Positions 3,793 to 50,730 of a stretch of DNA of 64,000 bases are shown in pieces. Every line of letters begins with the position of its first letter. Positions within the stretch are counted from its first letter, which is position 1. Both the position numbers and the translations under genes were made by a program. The notes under the pieces were generated by a model. The model saw nothing but the letters and a program-made list of their open reading frames with translations, was not told where the DNA came from and made no database searches. Source of the DNA: Squalus acanthias (Eukaryota); contig CM059435.1 of NCBI GenBank assembly GCA_030390025.1, positions 25,854,001 to 25,918,000 on the forward strand. Reading direction: 5' to 3'.

Positions 3793-3928
3793 TTTCTTCA
3801 CTTCACCTGACGAAGGAGCAGCGCTCCGAAAGCTTGTGATTTCAAATAAAGCTGTTGGACTATAACCTGGTGTTGTGCGACTTCTCACTTTTGTCCACCC
3901 CAGTCCAACACCGGCATCTCCGCATCAT
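3793..3928 (+). mobile_element. Penelope-like pLTR fragment with 3' tail
   Basis: Hammerhead, AATAAA and tail GTCCACCCCAGTCCAACACCGGCATCTCC shared with the 3' end of the element at 49733. Confidence 0.85.
3803..3839 (+). ncRNA. Minimal type I hammerhead ribozyme
   Basis: TCAC-CTGACGA-A-GGAGC agc GCTCC-GAA-AGCT-T-GTGA; stem I TCAC/GTGA, stem II GGAGC/GCTCC, palindromic AGCT in place of helix III. Confidence 0.82.
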
Positions 3929-6900
3929 CTCTTTCCAGTGTCACCTCATTGGAACAACCTCTCTCACCATTGACAGATCGCTTCTATCATCTCAACCTCA
4001 CCTGCCATCTATTCCATCAGCATCGTTGCCCTTGAAAAAATCTCACCTTGGTCCTCAGAATCCCACCACGATCAGCCCCAACACCAGCTGCACCAGGCAC
4101 ACCAGCAGCACCAACAACAACACCAACCTTCTCCGCAATCAGCTGATGCTGCACAGGACACAGGGCATCTGCACCCGACCACATTGCTGCCCGGGAGGTC
4201 AGAGATGGCCTCACCATGGCCACATTTACTTCACCTGATGCTGTACACCCTGGATGCCACATGATGCGCCAGGTTGGCACCTCCCCACACCAGCACCATA
4301 AAGTATCCCTACAATGCCCAAGCCATTCCTTTCACACTCATCGCCATTGCGGGGGGTACCGTTATGTCTCACCATTCACTGCAACTCACTAAGCCACTTC
4401 CAAAGTTGCACACAAATCTGTCCAAGAACGCAAAGTGTTGAAAATAAGGATTTCAATGTTTGACAGCACATTAACAGAAACTTCACATGAACATTGGCTA
4501 AAACACCCAAGTGCCTACCCTTGTGTGTTATTAGTTGGTATGATTGGACTAGGATGAGGGTGAGTGTGAGCAGTGGCTAGTGAGATGGAGATGTGATAAT
4601 GTAGATAGCGAGGGATGGGTGGAGGTGCAAGGTAAGTTGATGTGAGTAAGGATGTTCAGGAGTAGGGTAGGGAAGGCAGAGTGATGGGGATGTGATGAGT
4701 GGCACAGCAGCAGGATGAGGTTGAGTGTGGCTTTGCAGTAACGTTTCGTGATCTACTGAGATCATTGAAAGGCTTGCACCACTGCAGCCTGGTCCTCCTG
4801 AGGACATCCCTGCTTGTGTCCTTCTGTGCAATGTGCAACCAGGCTGCGTTGATCTTCTGGGGAGGTCTCTTCCGCCCATGGGAAGGGAAGAGAACCTCCC
4901 TGTGTGCTGTGACTCTCTCCATAAGCATATGGAGGGAGTCATGGGAGAGCCTGGGTGCAGCCGTGCACCTCTGTGCAGTGCTTGTCAGTGTTTGCAGCAC
5001 CTCAGTGCTGTCGAACACGGAGAGCAGGACTGTCAAAAACACTTGCGCATGGTCCCTTTAAGGAAACCGGCTGATGGCGCATCATCAAGTGACGTCATCA
5101 GACCTGCTTCCTTCAATTGGCCGGAAAACCCGCTCGGCGGGCTTAACAAGCCCAATCAACGTAAACTTCTTTTCACAGAGCGGAATGGAGCCAGCAGCGG
5201 GGCCGCACCGGACCCACCTCGGTAGACGAAATCGCGGCCTTGGTGTCCAATACATAGATTATTAAAATGTCATGGACAGGTACAGAAAATAATCAAAAAG
5301 GCTAATGGAATGCTGGCCTTTATATCTAGAGGACTAGAATACAAGGGGGTAGAAGTTATGCTACAGCTATACAAAGCCCTGGTTAGACCACACCTGGAGT
5401 TCTGTGAGCAGTTGTGGGCACCACACCTTAGGAAGGATATATTGGCCTTGGAGGGAGTGCAGCATAGATTTACCAGCATGATACCTGAACTCCAAGAGTT
5501 AAATTAGGAGGCGAGATTACACAAACTAGGGTTGTATTCCCTGGAATTTAGAAGGTTAAGGGATGATTTGATAGGGTGGATAGAGAGAAACTATTTCCGC
5601 TGGTTGGGGAGTCTAGGACCAAGGTTCATAGTCTTCAAAATTAGAGCCAGGCCTTTCAGGAGCGAAGTTACAAAACACTTCTACACATAGAGGGTGTTAG
5701 AAGTTTGTAACTCTCTTCTGCAATCGGCAATTGATGCTAGATCAATTGTTAATTTTAAATCTGAGATTGATAGATTTTCGTTAACCAAGGGTATTAAGGG
5801 ATATGGGGCAAAGGCGGGTATATGGAGTTAGGTCGCAGATCAGCCATGATCTCATTGAATGGCAAAACAGGCTGGAGGGGCTGAATGGCCTACTCCTATT
5901 CCTATGTAACTCTGATTTGAAATACTGTGGAGAATTAAGGGTGCAGATATGCAGAGTACTGCTCTGGTACCACACCATAGCTCCTCTTGTCTTTGGAGAA
6001 ATTCCCTTCGTTCCAGCAATGGCAACCATACCTTCAGCCATAAATGCCCCGTGATCAAAAGAGTTCGGGAACCTTTAAAGTGAATTTCACTTTCCATAGA
6101 CTGTCTTGTTTTCCCACCATTTCTGTTGTTTCTCTACTTCGATAAGCCTTTACTTAATCTGCATATCATTTGAATGGTCATGGAAGTAAGTTCCAGCCTA
6201 TTGGCTACACGTCATTGGAAATAAATTAGCAGTGTGCTGTTTTTTATGCTGTGGCTGAATGACAGCCAAACATGTTACCACAAAAAACACAGACAAGCCA
6301 CAAAAACAGCTGCAGATTCAAGCCTTCATGTGCTAATAAAGTTAACATTCACACTACAGAACCCAGCAAACTTACTAATGATATAAACTCCCTGGGCTTC
6401 AAGCTACAGGATCCTTTCATAGAAACTATATAAACTTACTGGAAAGTTAATGTTTTCATACGGTATGCAAGTTTAATCATTCATTCTCTTTGAAAGCAAA
6501 AAGCAAGTTGTGGAACTGCACATCCACCCATCCGATCTATCTAATTATAAAAACCTTAAAAATCCATCACACTTCAGACATCACACACTGTCTAATACAA
6601 TTTTCTGTGTTATGCAGGCAGTTATTTTGAATGTACGGAAAAGCTCTCCAGTAACAGAAAATACCAGGACCACAATGGCTGTAGTCTCTCAATTGACTTG
6701 CGTGTGAACTCGCACAGCGTTTAAGTGTTTACTTATAGTAAATTGACTTTGCAGTCTTAAAGGGGTGTGCAGCAGCATGGCACATTGTGCTTTACATGGC
6801 ATGATGTTCCTTCCTTAAAAAACAGTATATCCTCTGACTACTGTGAGTAGCACAATATATTCTTCAAAGTATTCACAAGGGAAGACAGAAGAATATGCTC

Positions 6901-6939
6901 TTCCCAAAAAGAGAGTATCAAAACAAAATTCATAATTTA

Positions 6940-10978: not shown

Positions 10979-11035
10979 CAAACTGAAACATTTTTGAATG
11001 CAGCCAATCATTACTGACTCCTTTTGTTTCTGCAG

Positions 11036-11107
11036 GCTGCTCAACAATAACCAGATTAAGGGGATTCCACGGAGGGCCTTTGAGGAGTTGGAAAACCTGA
11101 AGTATCT
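11036..11107 (+). CDS. PXDNL: Peroxidasin-family (PXDNL-like) coding exon, LRR (exon 3 equivalent)
   Basis: tgcag|G...CT|gtgagt, 72 bp, phase 2-2. Encodes [24 protein letters not shown], matching the peroxidasin LRR (human PXDN [24 protein letters not shown], from recall). PXDNL vs PXDN is an inference. Confidence 0.93.
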
Positions 11108-11789
11108 GTGAGTTTACATTAAGAAGCCGCAAGATATATTTGCTGTGGGTTGCATCTTGTATTGGAAGGCAGGCATGATTCGATTCTCCTTGATCTTGTT
11201 TCTCTCTTGTAATATTGGTTTATAACTTGAATGTGCATGAAGTAATCATGTGTAGTGGGGTAAATGTATTTATTTGCTGTAAGATGATATTGATCCCAAT
11301 AAGTCACTCGTACCTCATGTGTTTGCTTCACAAACATGGGGGGAGAAATTCGGCATGTTAGCGCCTGGGTTTGCAGCAGGGCGAATCCAACGCCGCACGC
11401 GACATTCACCCGGGATTTAGCGCTGCCGATTAACATTTAGCCTATGCCTTTAGTGGCTGCCAGATCGTGACGTCAACACGTGTGGAACGCCCCGTTAACG
11501 GCCCAGAGACAAAATTGACTGCCACCCCCCTGCCTTAGCGCCTGGCGTGAACAATGGCAGGAAGAGGAAGCGTGATGCAGTCGGATGGCCGCTGTAGGAG
11601 CGGTATTTAAAGGCATCAACATCCGGTTTCATTTTAGTCGCCAATCAATGCTGCCTTCTCAGTTTGACATAGGGGAAAGAGCTGTTTTCAGTGAGGTAAA
11701 CGTTTATTACTTTCAGGAGTGTTCTGGCTGCTAAAAATTTGTCAGTTTAATTGTGCTGAGATTTCGAAGTACTACACTTGGATACGTTA

Positions 11790-12864
11790 CTGGGAGCTGT
11801 ACTGGCACTCGACCTCGCCCTCCAGCGTCAACATCACAGGCAGAGACAAAGATTGGAAAATGTGGCCAGAGGGAGGAGGGCCAACAGAGCTGTCAACAGG
11901 AGGCCTTACCCTCCCAGGGTATTCCGGGAGCACTTCTACATACATTAACTGAGGAGCAGTGAAGGCTCCGCTTCACCAAGGAGGTGGTCACAGAGCTCTG
12001 CCACCTCCTGCAGCCAGACCTCGAGCCTTAGATCAGGACCACCACGACTCTCACAGTAGCAGTCAAGGTCACCGTCACCCTCAATTTCTACGCCAGCGGA
12101 TCCTTCCAGTCTGCCGCAGGATGCATCCGGGAGGTCACAGAGGCTCTCCACAGAAGGAGAAGGGACTACATTTCCTTCCCCATGACCAGAGAGAAGCAGG
12201 ACGCGCGTGCATGTGGCTTTGCCAGGATAGTGGGCTTCCCCATGGTGCAGGGCGCCATTGACTGCACCCATGTGGCTTTGTGGGCACCCCGCTACAATCC
12301 TGAGGTATTCCGTAACCGGAAAGGATGCCACTCACTTAATGTGCAGTTGATGTGCGACCACAGACAGTGAATTCTCACCGTCAATGCCCGCTATCCTGGC
12401 AGCAGCCACGATGCCTTCACCCTGCGCCAGACCGGTGTGCCAGCACTCTTCCAGCCAGCACATCAAGCTCACGGCTGGCTGGTCAGAGACAAGGTATATC
12501 CGAACTTCACCTGGCTCATGACTCCCCTCCGCAACCCCAACACTGCTGCTCAGCTCTCATATAATGAGAGCCATGCCGCCACCAGGAACATCATCGAGCA
12601 GACCATCGGAGTGCTCAAGCAATGGTTCAGCTGCCTTGACCGCTCGGGAGGAGCCCTCCAGTACTCGGCTGAGCGGGTGTCCCTTTTCGGCGGGGTGCAC
12701 AACTTGACCATCATGAGGGCCCAGCCATTGCCACCAGGCATTGCGGCACCACCTCGGGAGGAGGACGAGGAGGAGGAGGAACAGCAGCGAGGGAGGAGGC
12801 AGCCACTCAATCGGCCTTCAAAAGGGCAGTCCGTGACTGTCTGATCAGACTGCGGTTCCAATAA
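11790..12864 (+). pseudogene. HARBI1-type DDE transposase pseudogene
   Basis: Motifs GFPMVQGAIDCTHV, RNRKGCHSLNVQ, YPGSSHDA, WLVRDKVY, RNIIEQTIGVLK spread over several frames; start codon mutated. Confidence 0.9.
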
Positions 12865-14192: not shown

Positions 14193-14769
14193 CTGTTGGC
14201 ATATGGACCTCGGTTAATTCAGCTTCCGAAAGGTGTTCATGTTTCATTCATTCAATATGGGGAAAAGTGGTTGGCATCATTAGAGAGAGAGAGAGAGAGA
14301 GAGAGAGATACTGACTTCACTTCGCAACAGTCAGTGTTGAAGACTGAAGTAGGGCTTTGGGGTGTTTATAGTATTGCCAGACTGTAAATATCCCACCACA
14401 CACCATTGCAATTTTTGCAAGAGGATGTTGAAGTACAAGCCGATGGAAGGACGGTACATTGAATGGAAACACCGAATGTTGATGTACAAGAAATGTAAAC
14501 TTGTGTGCATCGGCTGAAGGACGGTGCTTTTGACCGGAGACTACCAAATACCCAGTTTGATAAAGGGAATAATGTATAATTATAAGCTGTTTCCTTTGTT
14601 CAAGCAGCACGAGAAGGGACGCATGCCTACATTTGCGTGCTCTATCTGTGACTATACTCCGCTTGTAAATTGCTTTTTATGCTGCAGTTAAAGAATAAAA
14701 TGATTCTAACCAGAAGACTGAATTCGTTACTACTCAAGTGAACAACAGAATGTTGTTTTGCGACCGCAC

Positions 14770-14832
14770 AAGAGACAGAGTGGGAGCGGGAGAAGGACGG
14801 GGAGAGACTGTTGGAGATGGACGGGGAGGGAT

Positions 14833-14884
<52 letters not shown>

Positions 14885-15470
14885 CGGGGGGGAGACAGAG
14901 AGAGAGCGACAGACTGGAGGTGGGGGGCGGGGGAGACAGATGGTGGATGACATAGAGAGAGACCAACAGGAGGGAGGGAGACAGACAGACAGACAGAGAG
15001 AGAAAGAGAGAGACAGACCAACAGGAGGGAGACAGACAGAGAGAGACAGACGGACGGTGGGGGAGACAGCGAGGGAGTCAGACGGAGAGACAACCGGGGA
15101 AGGGAGACAGAGACAGAGAGAGAGAAAGAGGGAGCGAGAGAGACAGAGACAGACGGGCAGACAGATGAGAAGACAGAGCAAGAGAGACAGTGGTGGGGGA
15201 GACAGACAGGGGTGAAAAACGGGGGATACAGGTGTGGGGAGACACATAGAGAGACACGCATGGTGGAGACAGAGATTGAGACAGACGGCAGGGAGACAGA
15301 TGGGGTGAGCCAGAGAGTGATGGGCAGATGCGTAGGAGAAAGAGAGAGAGTGAGACAGACTGGAAAACAGAAGGGGGAAGCCTGATGGGGAAGACAGAGA
15401 GAGAGAGAGACAGATGGGGGAGAGACAGAGGGAGAGTGACAGACTGTGGAGACAGAGGGAGAGAGAGATG
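14770..15470. repeat. Purine-rich (GA)n/(GACA)n compound microsatellite
   Basis: Long (GA)n run near 14839-14879 and degenerate GAGAC/GACA units over about 700 bp. Confidence 0.9.
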
Positions 15471-17879
15471 GGAATTCTTCCTCCTCCTCTTCTCCAGCCT
15501 CACGCTCACTGGGAGGCTCAGGGACAGGCTGGTCATCTGGTTGCTGATGACCTGAAAACATAAAGGCACAAGACTCGCGTTGTGAGGGCAGGAAGGGAGC
15601 AAGGCATGCAGACAGTATAATGAGCTGGAAAGTGGGAAAGGCTTGTGCTGTGAGGGGGAAGTGGAATAAGAGAATGAGAGGGGATGAACATACCATTGTT
15701 GTCCCCAAGGGGGTCGACATCGCCGACGGCCACGGTGCCCACCACCTGGTGCCCAATGACTGTCTACACTCGCTCCTCCAGGTCCGTAAGCTGTTGGATG
15801 TCCGCTTCAACCCCGCCTGTTCGTTGCTGCTCCCTCCTATGGTGGGCCAGCTTGGCCTGCAAGAGAAAGGAAAGTGTGTGAGTGAGTGTGCAGCTATGTG
15901 TTTGGGAGATGTGCCTGCCATAGTTGAATAGCTGTGATTGTAAGCAAAGCATGAGATGTGGATGTGAGTTTGAGTGGGTGGAGATGCTTGGTGGGTGAGT
16001 GATGGGGGTGTGGTGGTTTGCACAGTGTGTACAGACTGAAGTTCAGATGCTGGTATGTAGGACTTGTTGAAGCATGTACTCACCCTGACCACCCGAGTGA
16101 GGTCGTTGAATTTTTTACAGCACTGTGAGGGTCCTGTGCCACTTCCCTCCACATTGCCCTGAAGCCACGGGGCAATGGCCTCCTGCCAGTGGCCGGGAAC
16201 AGCACTGCCCTCCTTCTTTCGACTGCCGCGACCAATGCCTCCAATGCCTGGTCGCTGAAAAGGCGAACTCTCTCCCTGGGACTGGAATCAGCCATGAGGA
16301 TAAGAGGTGTAGCTGTTGAGTTGCTTGGAGGTCACCTTCAGAGCCAGCAATGTTGAGAATGAGGTTGTGCTGAATCGTCAACCTCCCCTTTAAGAGCTGG
16401 AGGGAGCCAGTGTGAATGATGAGTCCCGATTGGACTGCACCTGAAATTGGTTATAGCTCTGCGGGTAGCGCCCCGCTCTCTGTGAGTAGCGCCCTAAGTT
16501 AGGTGATTAGCGCTTGATTTAGCGCTCCAGTTCTTTCTTGGAGCGCTAACAATCAATTTAGCGGGAGGTCAGAAGGATTAGCACCTGGCGCTAATTCTCC
16601 AACTTTTTAAAATTTAGCAGGGCAATATCGAATTTCTAGCCCATGGTATCCATGCACTTATTAAATGTGGATAATACAAAACAGCGACATCATTGGGTGG
16701 CCAAATCTCTAAACATGATACAGAAGTCCATCTTTTTAATAAATGTCACCAGGCATATCTCAAGCTCCAGATGTATATTTTTTTCTCTATAAGCTTAAAG
16801 TTTTTATGTATTTAAGGAATGCTCATAACCAGATTTTGGGCTGAGTTCCCAACTCAGCATGAAGCATAACTGATCCTTGGTGTTAACAGATCTCTTCCAT
16901 AGGTTGTCACTAAAACTAACCTCTTCAATATTCATACGCATGCTGCAAGAACAACAGACAGCTAGTAGCTGTGCTGTGTGTGTAAGTGCACATGCATTGA
17001 GATGGACTGAACCTTCAGGCTGGGCACTATTTTCTCTCCTTACAATTCATAGCGATATGGTAGACATAAACATAAAGTGGGGAATGCTGCCCTGCATTCA
17101 TGTCTTTTTTTTTTCTAAAAACGCGAGAGAATTAAATGTATGCCGTAGACTTCCATGACTCGACTTCTCCATCACCATTCCAAAAATGGTACAAATTACA
17201 AATGAGAATTGGTAATTTTACAAGATTCACTGCAGGCAGGGATTCTCGCCCATTGGTGGCACAAATCATAAATTCAAGCATATCATTTTCTGACCATTAG
17301 TGGTTGAGAAATCGTGAGCACCTCTCTCCCAAATTTCCAATTTGTGCTGATGGCGGGCAAGGCTCGTAAAATTACCTCACTAGTGTAAACTCGAGAAGGC
17401 CTGAAATGATTAAGTGGATAAATCCAAGAGAACTGTCAGCAGCATGACATGTGACTGGAACAATGTTATGATTGAAGTCTTGGTAAAGGACAAGACAGTA
17501 CTTCTTCTGTACCAACATGCCATTTTCATCGAGACCATATATGTAGAGTAAATATTTTGTTTCCATGCAACCAACTATTGCTGTACAGTAAGGAAAGTAT
17601 ATTCTGCGATGATAGCATGGTTTTCCATTGGAATAGTAACACATTCGCTAACCGTCCAAGTTTCAGGTGGATGATCAGGTTGGGGCTTGTCCCTGTTCGT
17701 GCATGAAAATCAGCACTGTGTGCTGCTCTGTCCCCTCATCCCCACCTGAAGCTGCTACAGCAAACCAAAACTCTGTTACATGCTATGGTTGGGAACTTTT
17801 GATTTTGCAGTAGTTTTGTGAGATCAGGAATTCATGGCCACCGTCATAATGGGGTATATATCCACTGGAGCAGCAGAAT

Positions 17880-20229: not shown

Positions 20230-21072
20230 TAACTGCTCAGGATTATGAAGATTAAATAGTGAAAGTTTCTTTTCTCTGGTTGTCCAATCGGAATGAGAAG
20301 ACATGGGTTTACCACATTCTGTGTACAGTTCTGGTCACCACATTACAGGAACGATGTGATTGCACCAGAGGGGGTGCAGAGGAGATTTACGAGGATGTTG
20401 CCTGGGCTGGGGAATTTTAGCTATGAGGATAGATTGGATAGGCTGGGGTTGTTTTCTTTGGAGACCTAATTGAGGTGTATAAAATTATGAGGGGCCTTGA
20501 TAGATCGGATAGGAAGGACCTATTTCCCTTAGCAGAAGGGTCAATAACCAGGGGGCATAGATTTAAAGAAATTGGTCGGAGGTTTAGAGGGGATTTGAGG
20601 TGAAATCTTTTCACCCAGAGGGTGGTGGGGGTCTGGAACTCACTGCCTGAAAGGGTGGTAGAGGCAGAGACCCTCATCACATTTAAAAAGTACTTGGATA
20701 TGCACTTGAAGTGCCATAATTACGGACCAAGTGCTGGAAAGTGGGATTAGGGTGGATAGCTCTTTGTCGGCCGGCACGGACAAGATGGGCCGAATGGCCT
20801 GCTTCTGTGCTGTAAATTTCTCTGATTTACCACCAGAAGAATAAAAGGGGAGAATTTTTTCTCACAGTGTCATTAAAATGTGGAAACTTTACCCAAAGTG
20901 GCTGTTGAGAGAGAGACTATAACATCATTTGAAAGGTAATTGGATAAATATTTCAAAAGGAAGATTATAAAAGGATATGGGGCAAGGGCAGGGGAATGGG
21001 ATTAGATTAGTTAGCTCCAGTTGAAGAGCTAGCCGAATGGCCACCTCCTGTGCTGTAATTTCTATATAATTT
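20230..21072 (+). mobile_element. Nested CR1 3' fragments (younger copy at about 20310-20828 inside an older one)
   Basis: VQFWSPHY/GVQRRFTR-type RT C-terminus; two CR1 tails ending GCTGTAAATTTCT and GCTGTAATTTCTAT. Confidence 0.8.
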
Positions 21073-21089
21073 TCTTTTTCCCCCAACAG

Positions 21090-21161
21090 GTACCTTCACT
21101 TCAATAATATAGAAGTGTTAGAATCTGAAACTTTTAGTGACCTTCCTAAACTTGAAAGATT
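21090..21161 (+). CDS. PXDNL: PXDNL-like coding exon, LRR (exon 5 equivalent)
   Basis: aacag|G...TT|gtaagt, 72 bp; YLHFNNIEVLESETFSDLPKLERL. Confidence 0.93.
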
Positions 21162-21661
21162 GTAAGTAAAACCTTTTGGTACAAATAATTTTTGCCAAGT
21201 ATTTTTATTTTCAAAACTGATCATTTTTAATCAGCACAGTGCAAACAGCTTTATTTAAAATTTCTGATATCCCTCTGCCTTTGATCTAACACATTAGGCC
21301 TTGAAATTACACTGTGGGATACCAATGTGCAAATACTTAACACATTCATTTAAAAATCCTCTCTTTGCTATTTTATTGGAAGCATTAACCTGTTTAAAAT
21401 ATATGTCTTAATGCCTTTGGCAAAATAGTGGACAGAGGAATTTCTGACAAATATGTTTGTACACTGGCAGCCACACGTAATTGTTTGATTTTTATTTAAG
21501 AGGGCTATTGAGAATCTTCTACAGAACATTGCAACTGCATGGAACAGGATCTGATTTTCAATTCTTCTGAGCTGAACACATATACAGTTATTGCCTTTTT
21601 AGTGTATCTCAAATTTACTGGTGCTATTTTTAAAAAATTAATGTTCTTTTTAATTTTGTAG

Positions 21662-21733
21662 ATTCTTGCATAACAATAGACTATCAAGAATACATCCAGG
21701 GACTTTCTATCAGCTTGAATCATTGAAAAGACT
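21662..21733 (+). CDS. PXDNL: PXDNL-like coding exon, LRR (exon 6 equivalent)
   Basis: tgtag|A...CT|gtaagt, 72 bp; FLHNNRLSRIHPGTFYQLESLKRL. Confidence 0.93.
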
Positions 21734-22333
21734 GTAAGTAACAAAATCTGTTTGTGGAGCTATCCTGAATTTATGAGTGTGTTTGTATTCCAAGACAGTT
21801 TCTACTTGCACTGGTTTGCTATGTGCCGTGGTTGAGGTACTTTGGGATCTGCCCTCCTTGAATTGCAGCCCAACTTTCAGAATAGCAGTGGCAATGGAGA
21901 AACATGTGCAGCTTATTTGAAAATTGTGATTGAAGACTTCTACCAAGCCATTCAAAAACAGCACAGCTGACCTGTGTGGGTGCGGTAAGAATGCAGCCCA
22001 CCTTCAGTCCAAAGCAATTGTAGCTAGGGTGACGCTAAAGTGAAGTCATTGGCAGCCGGTAAATAGAGTCACTGCTGACATGATGGGCAAATAGCCTCTT
22101 GTTCCCTTCTGTTGGTGGTTTAGCTCACACTCAAAGGGGACGGGGAGAGCGATTTTGGGGAAACTTCATTTGTGCAGATATATGAGGAAAAGATTGTTAT
22201 TTCACCCCCCCCCCCCACCCCAAAAAAAAACCCCCACTGTATTAATGGAGATAAGGGGTAGATGCCCTGCCATGTTTTTGATTGCTGGTTTTGCACTGCT
22301 GCTGGTCAACCCAGATTGTAATATAAGCATGGA

Positions 22334-22493
22334 GGGGTAGGCTGTCTGCAGGGGTTCTCCCGCTGTAACTTCGGCTGAGGATCGGCGGAAATCCCAGAGA
22401 AACGGCATGAACACAGTTTCTCCCGGATTTCCGCCAATCTCCTGCCAAAGTTATGGCGGAAGATCGGGAAAACCCCTTTCGGAGATTCTACCC
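22334..22493. mobile_element. Short palindromic Harbinger-type MITE
   Basis: Ends GGGGTAG... / ...GATTCTACCC; internal inverted arms GGCGGAAATCC / GGATTTCCGCC. Confidence 0.6.
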
Positions 22494-23554
22494 TATCGGT
22501 ATTATCTGCAGAAAGGTGAAACCTGAAAGTACGGAGCTGCTTTTGAAAGTGGCTCCGTGCTATACGCGGGTACTAAAGATTCGGCTCGGCCCTCTGCGGT
22601 GATCTAAAGTGGTACGGCTGAGTGTTCCAGAATCCACTGAAATTCCAGGCGATGGTCCATTGCTACCATAATATCGGCATTTATTTTCACTGGAACTTGG
22701 AAAAGCAGTTGGCTTCACGCCAGCCACTTAAAGGGCTTTTATATTTCTCTTTTTAAGTCTGATTCCAGGAGCCTGGCATCCATGAACCATTTCCTGGTGT
22801 TTATGCTTTTAAATCCAGCTTCTGTGGACCAGTGGCAGACTTGTAGGCTCAGTTTTACCTGGGTTTACAAGTCTGCCACCGTTTCAGGTATTTCCTGTGG
22901 CCAGCCTCAGCAAAACCAATGAGTTTACTTTGGTAAACTGCCATGCGACCTGTCTGTCAGGAGCCAGCAGCACTAACACTGCAGTACTGTAATACAAAAG
23001 CAGCACAAGTGGCGTAGAAACCTCTTCATGGGAACACAACCATTGTCATTCTCTTTGTTTAATCATTTCCACCAAGAAAACACTATTCTCAGTTAACTCA
23101 ATTGACACTAATATGTTCACTAAGTGCCCCAAAATTGAAGTAATTAATCTGCCTTTAGCAGCAGGTTTAGATTTGATGCTGGGACCAAATAAATATTTCC
23201 TACTGCGCTCCTTTGGGAATCAAACTATTATCTGTCACTGACAGTAGGGCTTGTAAATTCTACTCCGACAGTCATGCTGGCTAATGATCACAGCTCATCT
23301 GTTCGGGAGAAACTAATTGTTCATCAACAATCACAGAGAATTACAAAACTTGGTTAACTATGTGTAAATGAAAAATTGCAAACTGATTTGGAACATTTGT
23401 AAATGGCTGTAAACCTTAATTCATGCCATCTATTTCCAAGACAATCTCTAATACCTAATAGGAGGTGGGAGGTGATCTGATGATACATCTCTGGTTTGCT
23501 AATTTAAACCTTGGGAATTGACACCATTCTGAATAAGTGGAATCATTTTTTTCC

Positions 23555-24125
23555 TTTACTTTGCCACTTTAATTCTCCCCTCCACTCCCACTCTGATCTC
23601 TCCGTCCTCGGCCTCTTACATTGTTCCAACAAAGCTCAACGTAAGCTCGAGGAACAGCACCTCATCTTTCTAGTAAGCACTTTACAGCCTTCTGGACTTA
23701 ACATCGAGTTCAACAATTTCAGACTATAAATTGGCCCCTGTATTTCTTTATATATTTTTTTCTCTTGTTTCCTCCCATGGTAGCTGTTAATGTTGCTGCC
23801 ATCATCATGCACACATCATCTAGAGCCATCTTTTGTTTCTGAACTTGTCCCATTACCTCTTCTTTTGCCTTGCACTATCATCCCTTTTGTCAGTCAATCT
23901 CTCCTGCCTTCCATCCTATCACAGACCTTCCCTTTGTTCTTTCCTCCCCTCCTCCCTGCCCCTGCTTAAAAATCTCTCCTCCCGAACCTTTTCCAGTCCT
24001 GACGAAGGGTTCGACCTGAAACGTTGACACTGTTTCTCTCTCCTCGATGCTGCCTGACCTGCTGAGAGTTTCCAGCACTTTCTGTTGTTATTTCAGATTT
24101 CCAGCATCCGCAGCATTTTGCTGTT
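23555..24125 (+). mobile_element. Penelope-like element 3' fragment (GIY-YIG C-terminus plus pLTR)
   Basis: CHFNSPLHSHSDLSVLGLLHC...RKLEEQHLIF...LQPSGLNIEF*, then a pLTR with hammerhead and GATGCTGCCTGACCTGCTGAG. Confidence 0.85.
23996..24028 (+). ncRNA. Minimal type I hammerhead ribozyme
   Basis: GTC-CTGACGA-A-GGGT tcg ACCT-GAA-ACGT-T-GAC. Confidence 0.78.
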
Positions 24126-24617
24126 GAATCATTTCGGAGGGTTTTATTTGAAACTCAGTTTTCTAAATGAATAGCTCCCACAGAATAAGCACTGGTGATG
24201 AATTTATGTGGCCATTGCTAGCCCTCCTGTTTGTGTCCAGACAATTCCATGTGCTTTCACAAGATCTACCTGGAATGTGGCTGCTCTGCACATGGTTCTA
24301 AAATGCAGCTGAATAAATGTTTTCTACTGAAAATAATGCATGTTCCAATATGGTGTTGGATGTACAGATTTTGTTTCAATGCTTTCTTTTCCACTTTTCG
24401 AGCATGACCTTATGAGGGGTCATAGCTAAGATAGGTCCTGACAGAAGCCAGATGACAGGCTAACATGGCCATCATATTCTCCAATCATCTAAATAGGGCA
24501 AGCACCAATAGGATGGAGAAACTGAATGTTCGGAGCCACATTGTGAACGTGGCTCTGATTATAAAGTAGCACAAGTAGAATAAGAATATCGTTATAACAT
24601 GATCATTGGTAATCATC

Positions 24618-27543
24618 TAGAAACATAGAAAATAGGTACAGGAGTAGACCATTCGGTCCTTCGAGCCTGCACCGCCATTCAATGCGTTCATGGCTGAACA
24701 TGCTACCTCAGTACCCCATTCCTGCTTTCTCGCCATACCCCTTGATCCCCCTAGTTGTGAGTGTTATATCTAACTCCCTTTTGAATATATTTAGCGAACT
24801 GGCCTCAACAACCTTCTGTGGAAGAGAATTCCATAGATTCACCACTCTCTGGGTGAAGAAGTTCCTCCTCAGCTCAGTCTTAAATGGCTTCCCCTTAATC
24901 CTTAGACTGTGACCCCTGGTTCTAGTTTTCCCTAACATTGGGAACATTCTGCCCGCATCTAATTTGTCTAAACCAGTCAGGATTTTAAATGTCTCTATAA
25001 GATCCCCCCTCATTCTTCTGAACTCCAGAGGATACAAGTTCAGTTGACCCAATCTTTCTTGATATGTCAGTCCGGCCATCCCAGGAATCAATCTAGTGAA
25101 CCTTCGCTGCACTCCCTCAATAGCAAGAATGTCCTTCCTTAAGTTGGGAGACCAAAACTGCGCACAATACTCCAGGTGTGGCCTCACCAAGGCCCTGTAC
25201 AACTGCAGCATCACCTCCCTACTCCTGTACTCAAATCCCCTTACTATGAAGGCCATCATTCCGTTTGCTTTCTTGACTGCCTGCTGCACTTGCATTCCCA
25301 CCTTCAGTGACTGATGTACCATGACGCCCAGGTCTCGTTGCACCTCCCCTTTCCCTAATCTGCCACCATTCAGGTAATAGTCCGCCTCTCTATTTTTACC
25401 ACCAAAGTGGATAACCTCACATTTATCCACATTGTACTTCATCTGCCATACATTTGCCCATTCACCCAACCTGTCCAAGTCACTCTGTAGCCTCCTAGCA
25501 TCCTCCTCATTGTTCACACTGCCTCCCAATTTAGTGTCATCCGCAAATTTGGAGATATTACATTTAATCCCTTCGTCCAAATCATTAATATATAATGTAA
25601 ACAGCTGGGGTCCCAGCACCGAACCCTGCGGTACCCCGCTGGTCACTGCCTGCCATTCTGAAAAGTACCCATTTACTCCTACTCTTTGTTTCCTGTGTGC
25701 CAACCAGTTCTCAGTCCACGTCAACACATTACCCCCAATCCCATGTGCTTTAACTTTGCTCACCAATCTCTTGTGTGGGACCTTGTCGAAGGCCTTCTGA
25801 AAGTCCAAATACACCACATCTACTGGTTCCCCCCTGTCCACCCTATTGGAAACATCTTCAAAAAATTCCAGAAGATTTGTCAAGCATGATTTCCCTTTCA
25901 CAAATCCATGCTGACTTGGACCTATCATGTCGCCACTTTCCAAATGGTCTGTTATGACATCTTTAATAATTGCTTCCATCATTTTACCCACGACCGATGT
26001 CAGGCTGACCGGTCTATAATTCCCTGCTTTCTCCCTCCCTCCTTTTTTAAAAAGAGGGGTTACATTGGCCACCCTCCACTCCATCGGAACTGATCCAGAG
26101 TCTAAGGAATGTTGGAAAATGATCGTCAATGCATCCACTATTTCCAAGGCCACCTCCTTAAGTACTCCGGGATGCAGACCATCAGGCCCCGGGGATTTTT
26201 CAGCCTTCAGTCCCATCAATTTCCCCAATACCTTTCCCGACTAATAAGGATTTCCCTCAGCTCCTCCCTCTTACCAGATCCTCTGACCCCTTTTATTTCC
26301 GGCAGGTTTTGTGTGTCCTCCACAGTAAACACCGAACCAAAGTACTTGTTCAATTGATCTGCCATTTCCTTGTTCCCCATTACGACTTCCCCTGTTTCCG
26401 ACTGCAGGGGACCTATGTTTGTTTTTACTAACCTCTTTTTACATATTTATAGAAGCTTTTGCAGTCCATTTTAATGTTCTCTGCAAGCTTCCTTTCATAT
26501 TTTATTTTCCCTGCCCTAATCAAACCCTTCATCCTCCTCTGCTGAGTTTTGAAGTTCTCCCAGTCCCCAGGTTTGCTGCTACTTCTGGCCAATTTGTATG
26601 CAACTTCCTTGGTTTTAATACTATCCCTGATTTCCCTGGTTAGCCATGGTTGAGCCACCTTCCCTTTTTTATTTTTACGCCAGACCGGGATGTACAATTG
26701 TTGTAGTTCATCCATGCGATCTCTAAATGTCTGCCATTGCCCTTCCACTGATAGCCCCTTAAATATCGCTTGCCAATTTAACCTCGCCAATTCACGCCTC
26801 ATACCCTCAAAGTTGCCCTTATTTAAGTTCTGGACCATGGTCTCTGACTTAACTGTTTCCTTCTCCATCCTAATGTAGAACTCCACCATACTATGGTCAC
26901 TCTTCCCCAGGGGGCCTCGTACCACAAGATTGCTGATTAGTCCTTCCTCATTACACAGCACCCAGTCCAGGATGGCCTCCCCTCGAGTTGGTTCCTCAAC
27001 ATATTGGTTTAGGAAACCATCCCTTAAACACTCCAGGAAATCCTCCTCCACCGTATTGCTTCCAGTTTGAGTAGCCCAATCTATATACATATTAAAGTCA
27101 CCCATGATAACTGCTGTGCCTTTTTTGCACGCACCTCTGATTTCCTGTTTCATACCCTCCCCCACCTCACTACTGCTGTTTGGAGGTCTGTACACAACTC
27201 CCACTAACGTTTTCTGCCCTTTGGTGTTCTGCAGCTCAACCCATATTGATTCCACATCCTCCAAGCTGATGTCCTTCCTAGCTATTGCATTAATCTCCTC
27301 TTTAACCAGCAATGCTACCCCACCCCCTTTTCCTTTTATTCTATCCTTTCTGAATGTTGAATACCCCTGGATGTTCAGTTCCCAGCCTTGATTGTTCTGG
27401 AGCCACGTCTCTGTAATCCCAATCACATCGTATCCGTTAACATCTATTTGCACAGTCAATTCATCCACCTTATTACGGATACTCCTTGCATTAAGACACA
27501 GAGCCTTTAGGCTTGTTTTATTAACATCCTTTGTCCTTTTAGA
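24618..27543 (-). mobile_element. Relatively young, 5'-truncated CR1 LINE with near-complete ORF2 (APE endonuclease and RT)
   Basis: 372-aa APE ORF (LNARSIRNK, GITETW, VIMGDFN, GKSDH) and 506-aa RT ORF (YLDFQKAFDKVPH, GVPQGSVLGP, KFADDT); frameshifts near 26435 and 26233. Confidence 0.95.
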
Positions 27544-27847
27544 CAAAAGGACAAATGGTCATTGCAGCGAACGTCTCTGTAGAAGGGTTGTTTCTCTCGC
27601 CTCTCTTCTCATTCCTCTCTAATTTGCACTATGCCTTTTGTCTCTTTCTGTCTCTGATCTGTCTTTAATTGTACTCTTTCAAATTGCTAATTGTGCATTC
27701 TCTCTCTCTCGCTCACACACACACACCATGTCGTCTATAATCGCTCTCTTACCTACCTCAACCTTCAATTTCATTTATTTTAGGGGTGCCCCAACCTTTT
27801 GCTATTATGGGCTGCAGGGGGCATTTATAAGATTTAAATCCATGTTT

Positions 27848-28340
27848 ACATAAGAACATAAGAAATAGGAGCAGGAGTAGGCCAATCGGCCCTTCGAGCC
27901 TGCTCCGCCATTCAATAAGATCATGGCTGATCTGATCCTCACCTCAAATCTAAAGAACACAAGATATAGGATCAGGACCCGGCCCGCTACGCCACCCACA
28001 GGGCCTCGACCGATCCGAACTCAGCCTCATGTCCAATTTCCTGCCCGCTCCCCGTAACCCCTAATTCCCTTTACTTCTAGGAAACTGTCTATTTCTGTTT
28101 TAAATTTATTTAATGATGTAGCTTCCACAGCTTCCTGGGGCAGCAAATTCCACAGACCTACTACCCTCTGAGTGAAGAAGTTTCTCCTCATCTCAGTTTT
28201 GAAAGAGCAGCCCCTTATTCTAAGATTATGCCCCCTAGTTCTAGTTTCACCCATCCTTGGGAACATCCTTACCGCATCCACCCGATCAAGCCCCTTCACA
28301 ATCTTATATGTTTCAATAAGATCGCCTCTCATTCTTCTAT
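27848..28340 (-). mobile_element. CR1 3' fragment with an internally duplicated 3' tail
   Basis: RRMRGDLIETYKI...RGYGERAG; tail ACATAAGAACATAAGAAATAGGAGCAGG with a diverged second copy at 27953-28029. Confidence 0.88.
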
Positions 28341-28361
28341 TACCTTTCACATATCTCAAGT

Positions 28362-28915
28362 AACGAACAACAACTTGCATTTATATAGCACCTTTAACAA
28401 AGGAAATTGTCCTAATGCCATTTATAGGAGTGTAATTAGACAAAAATTGACACCGAGCCAAAGAAAGAGATATTCGGACACGTGCCTAAAAGCTTGACCA
28501 GAGAAATAGGTTTTAAGGTAGGTCTTAAAGAGGGGGGAGAGCGGTGGAGAGGCAAAGGGGTTTAGGGAGAGAATGCCAAAGCTTAGGACCTAGACACCAA
28601 TGTTGGGGTGAAGGGAGTGGGGATGCACAATTGGCCAGAGTTGGAGGAATGCAAAGTTCTTGGAGGGTTGTAGGGCTAGAGGTGTTTTACAGAGCTAGGG
28701 AGGGGGAAGGCCATGAAGGGATTTGAACACAATGAGAATTTTAAAATCGAGGCGTTGGTGGACCAGTCGCCAATGTAGGTCACCGGTGGGTGATAGGTGG
28801 GCAGGATTTGGTGTGGGTTAGGGTATGGGCAGCAGAGTTTTGGATGTGCTCAAATTTCTGGAGGGCGGACGATGGGAGAACGACCAGGAGAGCATTGGAA
28901 TAGTCAAGTCTGGAG
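28362..28915 (-). mobile_element. L2 LINE 3' fragment
   Basis: (AAC)n TTGCATTTATATAGCACCTTT tail; homologous to 10579-10978. Confidence 0.8.
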
Positions 28916-29261
28916 GTATTGATACTAACAGATTTTGGTATTCTGATTCAGGATTAATCCACCAAAGAGACAAATGTGCTAAGAGCCCTTTCCAAACCAC
29001 CAGGCCCACAAAACTCAAACAGACAAGTAAATGTGAAATATACTTGGTGGAAGAACCAAGTTTTGAGGCTCCAATTGCTACATGTGGCACACAGGTAGTT
29101 TGGACATCCTTTATGATAGGATTGAATCTTCTAGGATGTTTTACAAAAATTGGATTAGAATCTAAGGTGTAAACACTCCCTAAATAATTTACCTGTGTAG
29201 TCTATGAACTGTTCCGTCATTGAGTTTACATATATTATATTTCTATGATTTTATTTTGCAG

Positions 29262-29431
29262 TCGCTTGGACTCCAATTCACTGATCTGTGATTGTGAATT
29301 AATGTGGCTGGCAGAACTGCTGAAGAAATATGCTGAACATGGTAACGCCCAGACAGCTGCCACCTGTGAGCATCCCAGGAGGCTTCAGGGGCGGTCGGTT
29401 ACAACAGTAACAGCACAGGAGTTTAATTGTG
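29262..29431 (+). CDS. PXDNL: PXDNL-like coding exon, LRRCT (exon 7 equivalent)
   Basis: tgcag|T...TG|gtaaat, 170 bp; [56 protein letters not shown]. Confidence 0.95.
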
Positions 29432-29779
29432 GTAAATTAAATTGTTTCTGAATTATTTCGTTCTTGTAAAGTAAATGAATCGATCCCCCATGAGTTTGTT
29501 TCACGGGTGATTGGGGGCGTGGAGAGGGGGGTGGAACAGTGCAAGGGGAGCAAAGCAGTCAGGCAGTTAATGCAACACTGGGCTAGGGAATGGATCCGTT
29601 GGGTGAAGTGAGAGCTAGAGTGGGAATGGAACAGGGCATGAGGCCCAAGTTCATGCAGCGATGGAGGTGAGTTGGTTTCCTATATTTGGCAACCTGGAGC
29701 AGCAAAGTCTTGGGCTGAGGCCAGGTGCGGAACCATTCCAAGGGCTGAGACCATGGTGTGTTTTTATGTCCTTGGTTTA

Positions 29780-41012: not shown

Positions 41013-41381
41013 GAGATATCTTGCATAAGGAAGTCGGGCTCACCAGCTGCTTCCAGGAAGTCGCACTATCCCGGGGTTGTGGAGGGTGAAGACTTGATAC
41101 AGCAGACCTCAGAGACTAACCATAGCAAGAGAAAGAAGCGGCTTCTGATCAAGTTTTTTTTTCTGGGGCCTGTGCATGCCATGCTCTGAGTGAGCTTGTA
41201 TAGGCCCCTCTTCCATTGAATCACCAACGTCCTCTTCAGTGACCTTAGAACGCTAGATGCTGAGGCTTACCAAGTGGCCCCTTCTAATGATCTAGCACTA
41301 TCCACCCCAGAGCCACCAAAACAAAATGGTGGGGGGGGGGGGGGGGAGGGGCAGAAAAACCAGGCTAGCATATCTATTTTA

Positions 41382-41490
41382 TTTCCAGTTCTGACGAAGG
41401 GTCTTCGACCTGAAACGTTAACTCTGTTTCTCTCTCCATGGATGCTGCCTGGCCTGCTGAGTTTTTCCAGCGTTTTCTGTTGTTATTTTA
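41382..41490 (+). mobile_element. Penelope-like pLTR fragment (same family as 23555-24125)
   Basis: Hammerhead followed by GATGCTGCCTGGCCTGCTGAG...TTCCAGC...TTCTGTTGTTATTT. Confidence 0.8.
41387..41423 (+). ncRNA. Minimal type I hammerhead ribozyme
   Basis: AGTT-CTGACGA-A-GGGTC ttc GACCT-GAA-ACGT-T-AACT. Confidence 0.82.
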
Positions 41491-43389: not shown

Positions 43390-43429
43390 CATATTGTGCA
43401 CTTCATGTGATTGTGGTCATAGTAACATC

Positions 43430-46780: not shown

Positions 46781-46784
46781 TTTG

Positions 46785-47285
46785 TAACATTTCAGGCAGG
46801 AGAAGATCTTTGGTCCATCTTGCCCACCTGTCCACACACCGTATTCCCTTGGTTCATTTCTAATAACCCTGAATCCCATTTGTTGACAAGAATGTTCTGT
46901 GTTAACCTGTCTAATTCCTCCTTGAGACCCATTAAGGTTTCTTGTATTTAATTTGCACCTTGTGCTTAAATTCTGTACACGACAGAAAAGCTTACTTGGA
47001 TCTAATTTGTCCAAAACTTTCATAATTTTAAACACTTTCATCATATCCCCTCTCCGTCTTCTCTTTTCAAGAGAGAACAGACCCAGTGTAGTCACTCTTT
47101 CCTCATATGTCATTCCCTTAAGTTATGGGATGTGGCATGTAGCCCTTCTCTGTACACCTTCCAATAACTGAATATCTTTTCCGAAATAGGCAGAATAAAA
47201 CTGCACGCAGTACTCCAGATGTGGTCTCACCCGAGCCAAAAACTGTTTTAAATTGACCTCTCTGGATTTATATATTATACCCCTT
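46785..47285 (-). mobile_element. Old CR1 3' fragment
   Basis: MTYEERVTTLGLFSLEKRRRRGDM. Confidence 0.75.
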
Positions 47286-48341
47286 GCTGTGATTCCGCAT
47301 CCTGGTTCACATCATGCTGGGGACCAACACTCAAAGCAACCTGGAGCAGTGTGTTAAAATTATCAGGGCTTAGTCCAGTGAAGGGGGCGAAAGGAGAATG
47401 ATCATAACGGAAAGCCTGGCGCTCTATTGTGTTACCCCACATCTACATTATCGCACCAGGAGACTTGGGAAAGGGGAGATAGAAAATTCATGTCCGGAAC
47501 TGCAAGGATTTACTCTCTTTCTGCTGACGGTTAGATGATCCGGAAGTGAGCAGATATGAAATGAGAAGAATAATAGTGGAAAAATGGAGTGTATATAATC
47601 CCTTGTAGTTAAGAGAATTGTATGGGGATAAATATAGTGTTCATGCTAGAATATCAAGAGGGGAAATATTCTGCAGAATAAAGCAGTAATGCTTCTGGCT
47701 AAGGTTAAATGTGCAGTGAACAGAAATGTCTCCAGATGTAGCAAGACACCTTTACTGAGAAATCGTCTGGTACGTTCTAACTGAGTGTACACAGTATGTG
47801 ACCCTGGAGTGTTTATTGCTTTTAGATTTGGAAGAAACATTTAAGGCCCAGTATGGTATTAATGTTCATTTACGATGTTTCCATGATCTGTAGAATAGTC
47901 CAGCCTGTTTCCATAGTGAGGACAACCTTCTGATATTGCTCATGGCAAAGTTGAATATCTGGATATTGAACAAACATGCTGGCTAGAAAATACTCAACTG
48001 GGATTTTTTGGTTGCATTACCCTCCATAAACAGGTACAATTGGAGTGTAGCAGCATGTAAAAATGGACAAATCCATTACATTTACCCATATTTCCAGTTG
48101 GTGAAAGGAAGCTCCAGCCAAAAGAGGTAGACGCTTCATCACAATATTAAAATTAATATTCATGCTGTTTCCAGCATTTACACAAGATCTGGACTCGGTT
48201 ATGTGTAATACCTTGTACAATGGGCCTGCAGGATTACTGGGCAGCTGTTCAATGCAGAAGGGAAATTTTAACGGGCCAGTGACAGTCAAAGTAATGGTTA
48301 TTGAATCTTCCCCCTTATCTTTGCCCACTAAGTTAATCTTA

Positions 48342-49104
48342 GGGGTAAAAATTGAGTCGCGCCCCATTTGGGGCGCTAACCTCGCCGGGGTGCAACTTTT
48401 AGCGCCCCGAAAAAATTAGCGGCCCCGCGCCGGAACTTCAGTGGTTGCGCCCCAAGAGGGAAGCGGGGCGCCACTGGAAGCACCCCGCATCCCTCTTGGG
48501 GCGCTGCGAGTGAATATCCTGGCGCTACGTGCCGCAGCGCCATGCGCTGCGGCACGTCGCGCCGCGGTATTGCAGGCCTTCCTCCCCTTCTTAAAGGGGA
48601 GGGACCCTGCGCAGCGCGAACCTGGGCCCCCAGGGATCGGGAGTGCCGGCAAAAGAGCCCGGCACTCAAGAGAAGTGCCGGGCTCTTGGAGCGCAGCCGG
48701 CACTTCACGGTGGGGGGGCTTCACGGGGGCCGGGGACAGCAACGGGGGCAGGTGCTGGCAGGCGGCCAGCAACAAAAATGGCCGCCTGCCACCTCCCCTT
48801 TAAATATCGCCGCCCCGGCCGCACGTACGCCTCCCTGAACCCGTCGGACATAGCGTCTGGCGGTAAATCAGGGGGCGCGACTGAAGATCACGGCCGGGGC
48901 GCGAGCGGGGTGCTGCGCACGGCGATGACGTCATCGCCGGCGGCGCAGCGCCACAGGGCGCTACCGGCTGCCGCCGCCGCTAACCTCCCACTAAATTTTT
49001 CGGGAGGCGTGGGCGGCGCTGCGCCCGGGCGTTAGCTGCTTTACGCCCCATTAGCGCCCTCTTAAGGCGCTAACGGGAGGCGCAAGCAGCTGAATTTTTC
49101 CCCC
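48342..49104. mobile_element. CpG-rich Harbinger MITE
   Basis: TIRs GGGGTAAAAATT / AATTTTTCCCCC; canonical TSD TTA (48339-41 and 49105-07). Confidence 0.9.
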
Positions 49105-49817
49105 TTAAGGTTTTGTGCCATGGGGCGTGGCCTTGCCATATTTTGGTTAAGACCTAAAAATGTGGTCAGTGGGTGCAGTCAAAGGCGCCCTGCACCATGG
49201 GGAATCCCGCTATCCTGGCAAAGCCACATGCATGCTTGTCCTGCTTCTCTCTGGTGATGGGGAAGGAAATGGATTCCCTTCTCCTACTGTAGAGAGCCTC
49301 TGTGACCTCCCGGATGCAGCAATGGACGGCGAACTGCGAGATGTTAGCTATGCCTCCTGTTGCAGACTGGCGAAGAAATTGAGGGCGACGGTGACCTTGA
49401 CTGCTACTGTGAGAGCCGTGGTCGCCCTGATCTGAGGCTGGAGGTCTGGTTGCAGGAGGTGGCAGAGTTCTGTGACCACCTCCTTGGTGAAGTGGAGCCT
49501 TCTAATACACTACTCCTCACTAAATTGGAGGTAGGAGAAGTGCTCTCGGAATTCCCTCGGAGGGTAAGGCCTCCTGTTGAGAGCCCTGATGGCCCTCCTC
49601 CTCCCTCTGGACACATGTTCCAGTCTTTCTCGCTGCCTCCGCTCCCTCCACCATAGATCCTGGAGGGTGAGGTCGACTGCCAGTACAGCCCCCATTAATG
49701 TAACCAAGTGTAGCAGTTTGAATTTTTCAAGATGTGGAGATGCCGGCGTTGGACTGGGGTGGACAAAAATGAGAAGTCGCACAACACCAGGTTATAGTCC
49801 AACAGATTTATTTAATT

Positions 49818-49855
49818 TTACAAGCTTTCGGAGCTGTCGCTCCTTCCTCAGGTAA
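49818..49855 (-). ncRNA. Minimal type I hammerhead ribozyme (pLTR)
   Basis: Exact reverse complement of 50693-50730. Confidence 0.8.
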
Positions 49856-50089
49856 GTTAGCAGTGAGAGAATCTCCCAGAATTCACAATTTAAACACAGA
49901 CAAAATCTATTCAAATATTTCCCTACATCAAAGACACACTAAGAGTACAGCCAAGACAATGAGATGTGTCCCAGGGGGTCCAACGTGTCAAACCACCTGC
50001 TGGCTGCATATCCTGTCAATTTGTGTTGGTTCTTGAGCTAGTCTTTTTAAAAAAAAAAAACACCTGGGAAGACCGGCCATGATGTCAAG

Positions 50090-50555
50090 TCACGTTCTGT
50101 ATCGTGACATGAACCCGATATCGCGATTGAGGCCATCCTCATGAGTGCGGAACTTGGCTATCAGTTTCTGCTCTATGATTTTGCGCTGTCGTGTATCCCG
50201 AAGGCCGCCCTGGAGAACGCTTACCCGCAGATCCGAGGCTGAATGCCCCTGGCTGCTGAAGTGTTCCCCGACTGGGAGGGAACCCTCCTGCCTGGCGATT
50301 GTTGCGCGGTGTCCGTTCATACGTTGTCTCAGTGTCTGCATGGTCTCGCCGATGTACCATGCTCTGGAGCATCCTTTACTGCAACGTATCAGGTAGACAA
50401 CGTTGGCCGAGTCACATGAGTATGTACCGTGTACCTGGTGGGTAGTGTCCTCACGTGTGATGATGGTATCTGTGTCCATGATTTGGCATGTCTTGAAGAG
50501 GTTGCCGTGGCAGGGTTGTGTGGTGTCTTGGTTGCTGTTCTCCTGAAAGATGGGT
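50090..50555 (-). pseudogene. Penelope GIY-YIG endonuclease domain fragment
   Basis: TYSCDSANVVYLIRCSKGCSRAWYIGETMQTLRQRMNGHR...VGEHF...RKIIEQKLIAKF...GLN. Confidence 0.9.
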
Positions 50556-50692
50556 AATGACACGTTGGACCCCCTGGGACACATCTCATTGTCTTGGCTG
50601 TACTCTTAGTGTGTCTTTGATGTAGGGAAATATTTGAATAGATTTTGTCTGTGTTTAAATTGTGAATTCTGGGAGATTCTCTCACTGCTAAC

Positions 50693-50730
50693 TTACCTGA
50701 GGAAGGAGCGACAGCTCCGAAAGCTTGTAA
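50693..50730 (+). ncRNA. Minimal type I hammerhead ribozyme (inverted pLTR)
   Basis: TTAC-CTGAGGA-A-GGAGC gaca GCTCC-GAA-AGCT-T-GTAA. Confidence 0.8.

Follow-up and report, generated by a model that had tools for sequence, protein, structure and literature searches.

Six minimal type I hammerhead ribozyme motifs occur within 64,000 nucleotides of the Squalus acanthias genome (positions 25,854,001 to 25,918,000 of contig CM059435.1; this whole stretch is the window, and supplies the coordinates used below), and all six are intronic in a peroxidasin paralog. Very probably, five truncated insertions from two families of Neptune-type Penelope-like elements (PLEs) account for them, the hammerheads lying in the 3' ends of these insertions, which are carried as likely inert passengers in the introns of this gene. 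Nothing points to control of peroxidasin, and the insertions appear to be ordinary PLE remnants that add new members to a known kind.

Hammerhead motifs within truncated Neptune-type elements

The motifs were defined by a structural descriptor consisting of CUGAnGA, one extra base, a helix II of at least 4 bp, GAAA, a palindromic NN, UH, and a helix I of at least 3 bp. They are named by the position of C3, as 3807, 23999, 41391 and 50697 on the forward strand, and 1876 and 49851 on the reverse strand. The descriptor found exactly six cores in the window, against none in 200 dinucleotide shuffles, confirming all the positions, stems, tetramers, NUU sites and cut sites listed for six cores by a first-pass annotation made from the sequence alone. 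The hammerhead search envisaged in that annotation succeeded with the descriptor, which recovered all six, but not with Rfam, in which a scan of the window matched no hammerhead family at E<=5 and returned seven weak matches, all below the gathering score. Each copy combines the CUGAnGA and GAAA core with an NUH cleavage site, which is NUU in every case, and has an extra base after A9, a helix II of 4-5 bp, a palindromic 15.1-16.1 tetramer (AGCT or ACGT), and a helix I of 3-4 bp (TCAC/GTGA, GTC/GAC, AGTT/AACT or TTAC/GTAA). The four AGCT copies have a G10.1-C11.1 pair, replaced by G-U in the two ACGT copies, 23999 and 41391. Cleavage is predicted after 3835 (copy 3807), 24025 (23999), 41419 (41391) and 50726 (50697).

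Every motif sits within the 3' end, the pseudo-long terminal repeat (pLTR), of a truncated Neptune-type PLE. The six motifs of the first-pass annotation belong to only five insertions, as 49851 and 50697 are the arms of a single element (hammerhead spans include helix I):

1789-1884, reverse strand: short fragment of a Neptune family 1 pLTR, truncated at its 5' end; hammerhead 1840-1880 (AGCT, helix I UCAC/GUGA); intron 2, antisense to the host
3782-3927 (ends approximate), forward strand: Neptune family 1 pLTR fragment and tail, with hammerhead 3803-3839 and AATAAA at 3845-3850; intron 2
23562-24126, forward strand: older family 2 PLE 3' end with hammerhead 23996-24028 (ACGT, 3-bp helix I, G10.1-U11.1); intron 6
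41376-41488, forward strand: family 2 PLE 3' end of 113 bp with hammerhead 41387-41423; intron 10
49733-50780, reverse strand: young 5'-truncated Neptune family 1 element with tail, 3' pLTR, GIY-YIG fragment and inverted 5' pLTR copy; intron 10
49818-49855, reverse strand: minimal hammerhead in this element's own 3' pLTR, antisense to the host
50093-50521, reverse strand: fragment from the Neptune open reading frame (ORF), with C-terminal linker and GIY-YIG endonuclease
50558-50784, forward strand: inverted pLTR arm of 227 bp, 100% complementary to 49764-49990, holding hammerhead 50693-50730

Target-site duplications were found for three of the five insertions: 9 bp around 1876 (at 1780 and 1885), 10 bp around 41391 (at 41366 and 41489), and 16 bp around the 49733-50780 element (at 49717 and 50781). 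None was found around 3807, and the sole candidate around 23999, an 8-bp match, is inconsistent with the ends of the element. The 1876 and 3807 insertions are short 3' ends of related family 1 subfamilies, the 23562-24126 element is 80-87% identical to other family 2 copies, and in the 49733-50780 element, 814 of 819 aligned bases (99.4%) agree with those of a full-length copy. Pfam gave no match for the GIY-YIG fragment at 50093-50521.

The parent of family 1 encodes a single 892-aa ORF comprising a reverse transcriptase (RT; RVT_1, E=2e-8), a cysteine (Cys) linker and, at the C-terminus, a GIY-YIG domain, with its ATG following the tail, 121 nt beyond C3. This family is very young, with many copies 99% identical at the protein level. 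In longer family 2 copies, the hammerhead is preceded by RT and GIY-YIG fragments lying 187-321 nt upstream. Between the RT and the endonuclease (EN), both families have a Cys-rich linker motif, as defined in PMC8557442 (CHGNLCKTC in family 1 and CKRRRCNTC in family 2), and they are ~32-41% identical to one another in aligned protein stretches. The tandem or inverted pLTR layout, with the tail present, is seen in the window element 49733-50780 and in the trimer at locus L081 (C5:29355000-29364999), a head-to-tail array in which three identical hammerheads, spaced at 3,031 nt, accompany two intact 892-aa ORFs. Both families are thus EN+ PLEs, putatively of the Neptune clade, which is assigned by motif rather than by tree. 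The L081 array is the natural setting for a hammerhead dimer. At two further loci, L007 and L010 (C1), tandem units of 5-6 nt from the helix I 5' strand lie at the inversion junctions of hairpin-shaped PLE stubs.

The host is one of three peroxidasin paralogs in the 3.71-Gb genome. According to tblastn, its 23 coding exons lie on the forward strand and extend from -114,874 to 105,081. The second immunoglobulin exon shares 95% identity with a stingray 'peroxidasin homolog'. Copies 1876 and 3807 are in intron 2, 23999 is in intron 6, and 41391, 49851 and 50697 are in intron 10. The exons placed by tblastn within the window are:

11037-58676, forward strand: host exons 3-15, starting at 11037, 19101, 21091, 21663, 29263, ~31559, ~35239, ~37472, ~51425, ~54100, 54659, ~56549 and ~58572

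Six motifs in the window is only mildly above the genome background. The relaxed core has 144,263 matches genome-wide, against 1,127 control matches, giving 2.49 per 64 kb (39 per Mb), at which the Poisson probability of at least six is 0.04, corresponding to ~2,400 such windows across the genome. Strict patterns matched 46,872 AGCT-type and 19,783 ACGT-type sites, family anchors numbered 102,102 (family 1) and 79,242 (family 2), and of the first 105 64-kb windows of C1, five held at least five strict matches. The structural descriptor detected 55 copies in seven gene spans totalling 1.41 Mb, the same density as the genome; this set, in which gene strand was assigned with a motif check, is used for the orientation analyses below.

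The ribozyme would belong to the element's own tandem transcript, in which identical tandem copies, together with the PLE protein, could build a strand-swapped dimer. Reverse transcription would begin at the tail and stop early, scattering short copies for which uncut RNA was mostly the template. Intronic copies standing alone would lack a matched partner nearby, misfold, or be masked by an inverted arm, and would likely be spliced out uncut. Copies beginning at the scissile bond make up less than 1% of the family. A fixed 5' start of short copies, or a start at the cut site, was sought in a 163-copy alignment without any clear spike emerging, the alignment being noisy and inverted arms leaking into the references. 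In genome counts normalised for flank chance, 377 copies start at the bond, compared with 166 at -3 and 249 at +3. However, of 12 such loci examined, eight have an inverted partner and two are small insertions in intact copies, meaning the excess at the bond is not a clean cleavage signal.

Proposed dimer formation in the host transcript

The first-pass annotation recognised the motifs as PLE pLTR minimal hammerheads of dimer-type architecture, which was borne out. It further proposed that two 'dimer-compatible pairs', 3807 with 50697 and 23999 with 41391, form long-range dimers in the host precursor mRNA (pre-mRNA), cutting the nascent transcript or releasing ribozyme-bounded RNAs as a regulatory device. 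This proposal has in its favour the intact cores, the palindromes that match within each pair, and the sense orientation of all four copies, and yet it is unsupported and barely credible. Firstly, the topology works against it. With the palindrome paired from one strand to the other, the partner supplies each core with both the cut site and the 3' strand of helix I. Hence the helix I covariation among copies, offered as support in the annotation, speaks against heterodimers instead, as helix I forms across the strands. In the crossed helix I of 23999 and 41391, the 2.1-1.1 pair of one core is a C-A mismatch, and the other core retains only 3 bp, the first being U-G. That of 3807 and 50697 has 2 bp followed by C-A at the third pair in one core, although the other can make 4 bp including a G-U pair. 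Active heterodimers are predicted to lie 8.9 (23999 with 41391) and 7.1 kcal/mol (3807 with 50697) above the separate folds; homodimers are predicted at 2.5 kcal/mol for the AGCT type and 7.9-8.7 kcal/mol for the ACGT type.

Secondly, the proposed partners are in separate introns, 47 kb apart with eight exons between them (3807 and 50697), and 17 kb apart with four exons between them (23999 and 41391). Given elongation and splicing rates, intron 2 would usually be excised before 50697 is made. Thirdly, the local folds of the copies are predicted to be unfavourable: neither 3807 (P<=0.06) nor 23999 (P=0.0) forms helix II, while 41391 does but has its core and palindrome paired. Copy 50697 folds best alone, but in the full element is predicted to pair (P ~1.0) with the upstream antisense arm, which is transcribed first, and so would be masked. 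Fourthly, comparable arrangements are common by chance, same-palindrome sense pairs being the norm: across the seven gene spans, 17 of 27 sense copies have such a partner within 47 kb.

Nor do 41391 and 50697 show positional conservation of the kind known from the domesticated RECK-type hammerhead. The 41391 element is lineage-specific, being absent in relatives B and C, in which single contigs jump from 41339 to 41489 or 41492, and the element holding 50697 is very young, at 99.4% identity to its intact parent. At the 23999 element, the relatives' contigs break at its edges. Two putative RNA runs covering 21000-29600 yielded repeat-derived contigs and one 226-nt piece across the edge of intron 6 and exon 7; no splice joint was present among the matches listed, and assembled contigs cannot show RNA ends, so they speak neither for nor against cleavage. 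For 51300-59000, no RNA dataset was listed.

No depletion of sense copies is seen either, with 27 sense and 28 antisense copies in the seven gene spans. The corresponding numbers for solo copies are 9 and 13 (p=0.52), and excluding the host gene leaves 19 and 22 in total. Divergent inverted pairs hold 33 of the 55 copies, and inverted pairs hold 26 of the 34 AGCT copies.

The insertions could also act on host RNA through signals other than the ribozyme. In family 1, AATAAA directly follows the cut site (3845-3850 and 50736-50741). In family 2, a pyrimidine tract and CAG directly precede helix I (23988-23995 and 41379-41386), resembling the intron end described in the D. virilis Penelope element in PMC4209133. 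In the host sense, these may act as cryptic signals for polyadenylation and splicing. In addition, a perfect 227-bp inverted repeat (49764-49990 and 50558-50784) lies ~640 nt upstream of exon 11, and would likely form double-stranded RNA within the pre-mRNA and act as a substrate for editing. These signals, and a perfect duplex that could affect editing or splicing, are present in the sequence. However, the family anchors exhibit no orientation bias (25:28 and 16:18), and this alternative is regarded as highly improbable.

Several further features were noted in the window. A CR1-type long interspersed nuclear element with long endonuclease and RT frames (24620-27552, reverse strand) is absent in relative B. 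DDE_Tnp_4 (Harbinger-like) transposase fragments are found at 11763-12844 (forward), 49166-49722 (reverse) and 52501-53103 (reverse), and intron 3 contains a long GA-rich simple repeat at 14263-15500. A weak Rfam match to transfer-messenger RNA at 52098-52166 (reverse strand, E=0.008, below the gathering score) is probably the tRNA-like head of a short interspersed nuclear element.

Insertions at the scissile bond and possible incidental cleavage

Genome-wide, the UCAC/GUGA-type hammerheads comprise 59,854 intact copies, and 131 with an insertion at the scissile bond. Among the 100 of these insertions listed, a hand count found 59 with one extra G, 31 with an 8-nt tandem duplication, four with an extra T, one with an extra A, and five others. 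Scaled to the full set, the extra G affects ~77 of the 59,854 copies (0.13%), compared with 0 to ~5 at neighbouring positions. Controls within the motif were G duplications at 15.2, in 4 of 33 matches, and two bases downstream of the bond, in 0 of 8 matches. A single source element is ruled out, as the 56 extra-G copies with intact cores include six helix II variants with at least three copies each, and CTT as well as CTC, and the extra G is absent from all four same-subfamily partner arms that cross the site. An inverted partner is present within ~400 bp in 6 of the 18 extra-G copies inspected, against a background of 17 of 27. The extra G arises repeatedly, in one arm, from more than one source.

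In the UUAC/GUAA subfamilies (26,383 intact copies), the 12 insertions include no single extra G, although an equal rate would predict ~34. Age as the cause of this absence is unsupported, as these subfamilies are not younger (arm divergences of 11/900 and 6/400). The UUAC/GUAA helix I is weaker than that of UCAC/GUGA by 2.3 kcal/mol, which fits a structure-dependent cause without singling out cleavage. One such cause would be structure-guided polymerase error, consistent with the extra G lengthening helix I by pairing with C3. Another is that the extra G is a genomic scar of self-cleavage in vivo, with the Neptune hammerhead cutting its own RNA, and the RT adding or repeating one nucleotide at the 5'-OH end as it jumps the break. 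Template jumping with non-templated addition has been demonstrated for the R2 RT, rather than a PLE RT, in PMC8857657, and the scar is put forward here tentatively, as a doubtful but real possibility. In family 2, 110 insertions occur at the bond, with 41 T, 26 A and one G among the 100 listed. As controls, another TT, with a denominator about half as large, showed four T duplications, and the AAA run showed 20 A duplications. The family 2 insertions represent a less marked excess, in a TTAA context prone to slippage. If the scar interpretation is true, PLE minimal hammerheads have left a record of their in vivo activity in this genome, among ~144,000 copies and graded by the strength of helix I. 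A site-specific scar in genomic copies would be open to computational testing in any PLE-rich genome, as well as to a simple RT assay. No paper on scars at PLE cut sites was found in the literature searched, with subscription journals outside its coverage.

These insertions bear on a more modest role for the window copies, namely that some sense copies, 3807 being the best placed, are occasionally cut at a low level by pairing with a matching copy, whether within the same intron or in another abundant transcript, perhaps assisted by PLE protein in the germ line, and with little effect on mature mRNA. Several observations weigh against the interpretation of the motifs as inert passengers in this respect. 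The AGCT copy at -4843, in the sense orientation in intron 2, outside the window and 8.6 kb upstream of 3807, cross-pairs perfectly with 3807, with both cross helices being 4 bp, and their active dimer is predicted to exceed the isolated monomer folds by only 2.5 kcal/mol. The inverted arm of -4843 reaches only the sequence from ~+5 onward. The -4843 and 3807 copies are better suited to testing than the pairs of the first-pass annotation. Moreover, 59,854 copies share the 3' helix I strand of 3807, and repeat-derived contigs are abundant in the two putative RNA runs. The extra-G signal suggests that the UCAC/GUGA type, including 3807, may cleave in some setting. The host gene itself holds eight sense and six antisense copies, and the orientation test is weak: without the host gene, the solo ratio of six sense to 12 antisense (p=0.24) is a weak trend that allows real selection against sense copies, a moderate bias being compatible with the test. 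Dimer cleavage by such motifs was also reportedly described by Luense et al. in 2017.

Nevertheless, 3807 is predicted to misfold in context, its dimer with -4843 depends on three 4-bp helices, and published dimers are weak, requiring high Mg2+ or protein (PMC4209133, PMC11167929). In the former source, monomers of the Schistosoma mansoni minimal hammerhead are inactive, with low activity in dimers and trimers. In the latter, the Anolis PAc hammerhead cleaves only with the PLE protein and is dispensable for insertion in vitro, with no RNA-seq reads ending at its site. Incidental cleavage is therefore considered unlikely, and that the motifs are passengers within PLE remnants is the preferred explanation.

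Relation to known hammerhead systems

The hammerhead load of this genome is very large and young, and with its intact tandem parents provides ready test material. Under other descriptors, and so not strictly comparable, ~4,000 minimal hammerheads are given for the coelacanth and ~9,000 for X. tropicalis in PMC4209133, and 126,247 type I motifs for the axolotl in PMC7229834, again with a differing descriptor. No paper on hammerheads in the genomes of sharks or cartilaginous fish was found in the literature searched, which did not extend to subscription journals; the main-text parts and the one supplement of PMC4209133 that were covered name no shark. In a preprint on retrozymes (bioRxiv 10.64898/2026.07.22.740005), one chondrichthyan is sampled, and Xenopus retrozymes are reported to be depleted from introns.

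With those non-LTR (long terminal repeat) retrozymes (PMC7229834 and the same preprint), the window copies share type I hammerheads in a vertebrate genome, some of them intronic. Unlike them, they form no short head-to-tail array, all being single or inverted. Relative to the amniote intronic hammerheads such as that of RECK (PMC6155905), the copies here lack a canonical helix III, loop-loop contacts and conservation, 41391 being absent in two close relatives. The Anolis PAc element, of the Poseidon type (Frangieh et al. 2024, PMC11167929), resembles those described here in having a hammerhead in its pLTR, a tail marking the ends of insertions, and unprocessed RNA as the main template; its ORF starts at stem II, whereas here the ATG comes after the tail.

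Two descriptions of PLEs also correspond closely. As set out for EN+ Neptune elements by Craig et al. (2021, PMC8557442), both have a single ORF of RT, Cys linker and GIY-YIG, partial tandems, an inverted 5'-truncated copy, and a tail of 30-40 bp on one end, with this genome contributing two shark-like families that are as divergent from one another as noted above (~32-41% identity). As set out for metazoan PLE hammerheads, including fish Xena, Poseidon and Neptune, by Cervera and De la Pena (2014, PMC4209133), both have the type I topology with no stable helix III, the palindromic 15.1-16.1 tetramer, the extra base between A9 and 10.1, and a short helix I, and occur mostly as dispersed single copies from truncated PLEs, with close pairs on opposite strands. 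What distinguishes S. acanthias is the ~144,000 cores, a helix II of 4-5 bp, and family 2 window copies that close this helix with G10.1-U11.1 rather than G-C.

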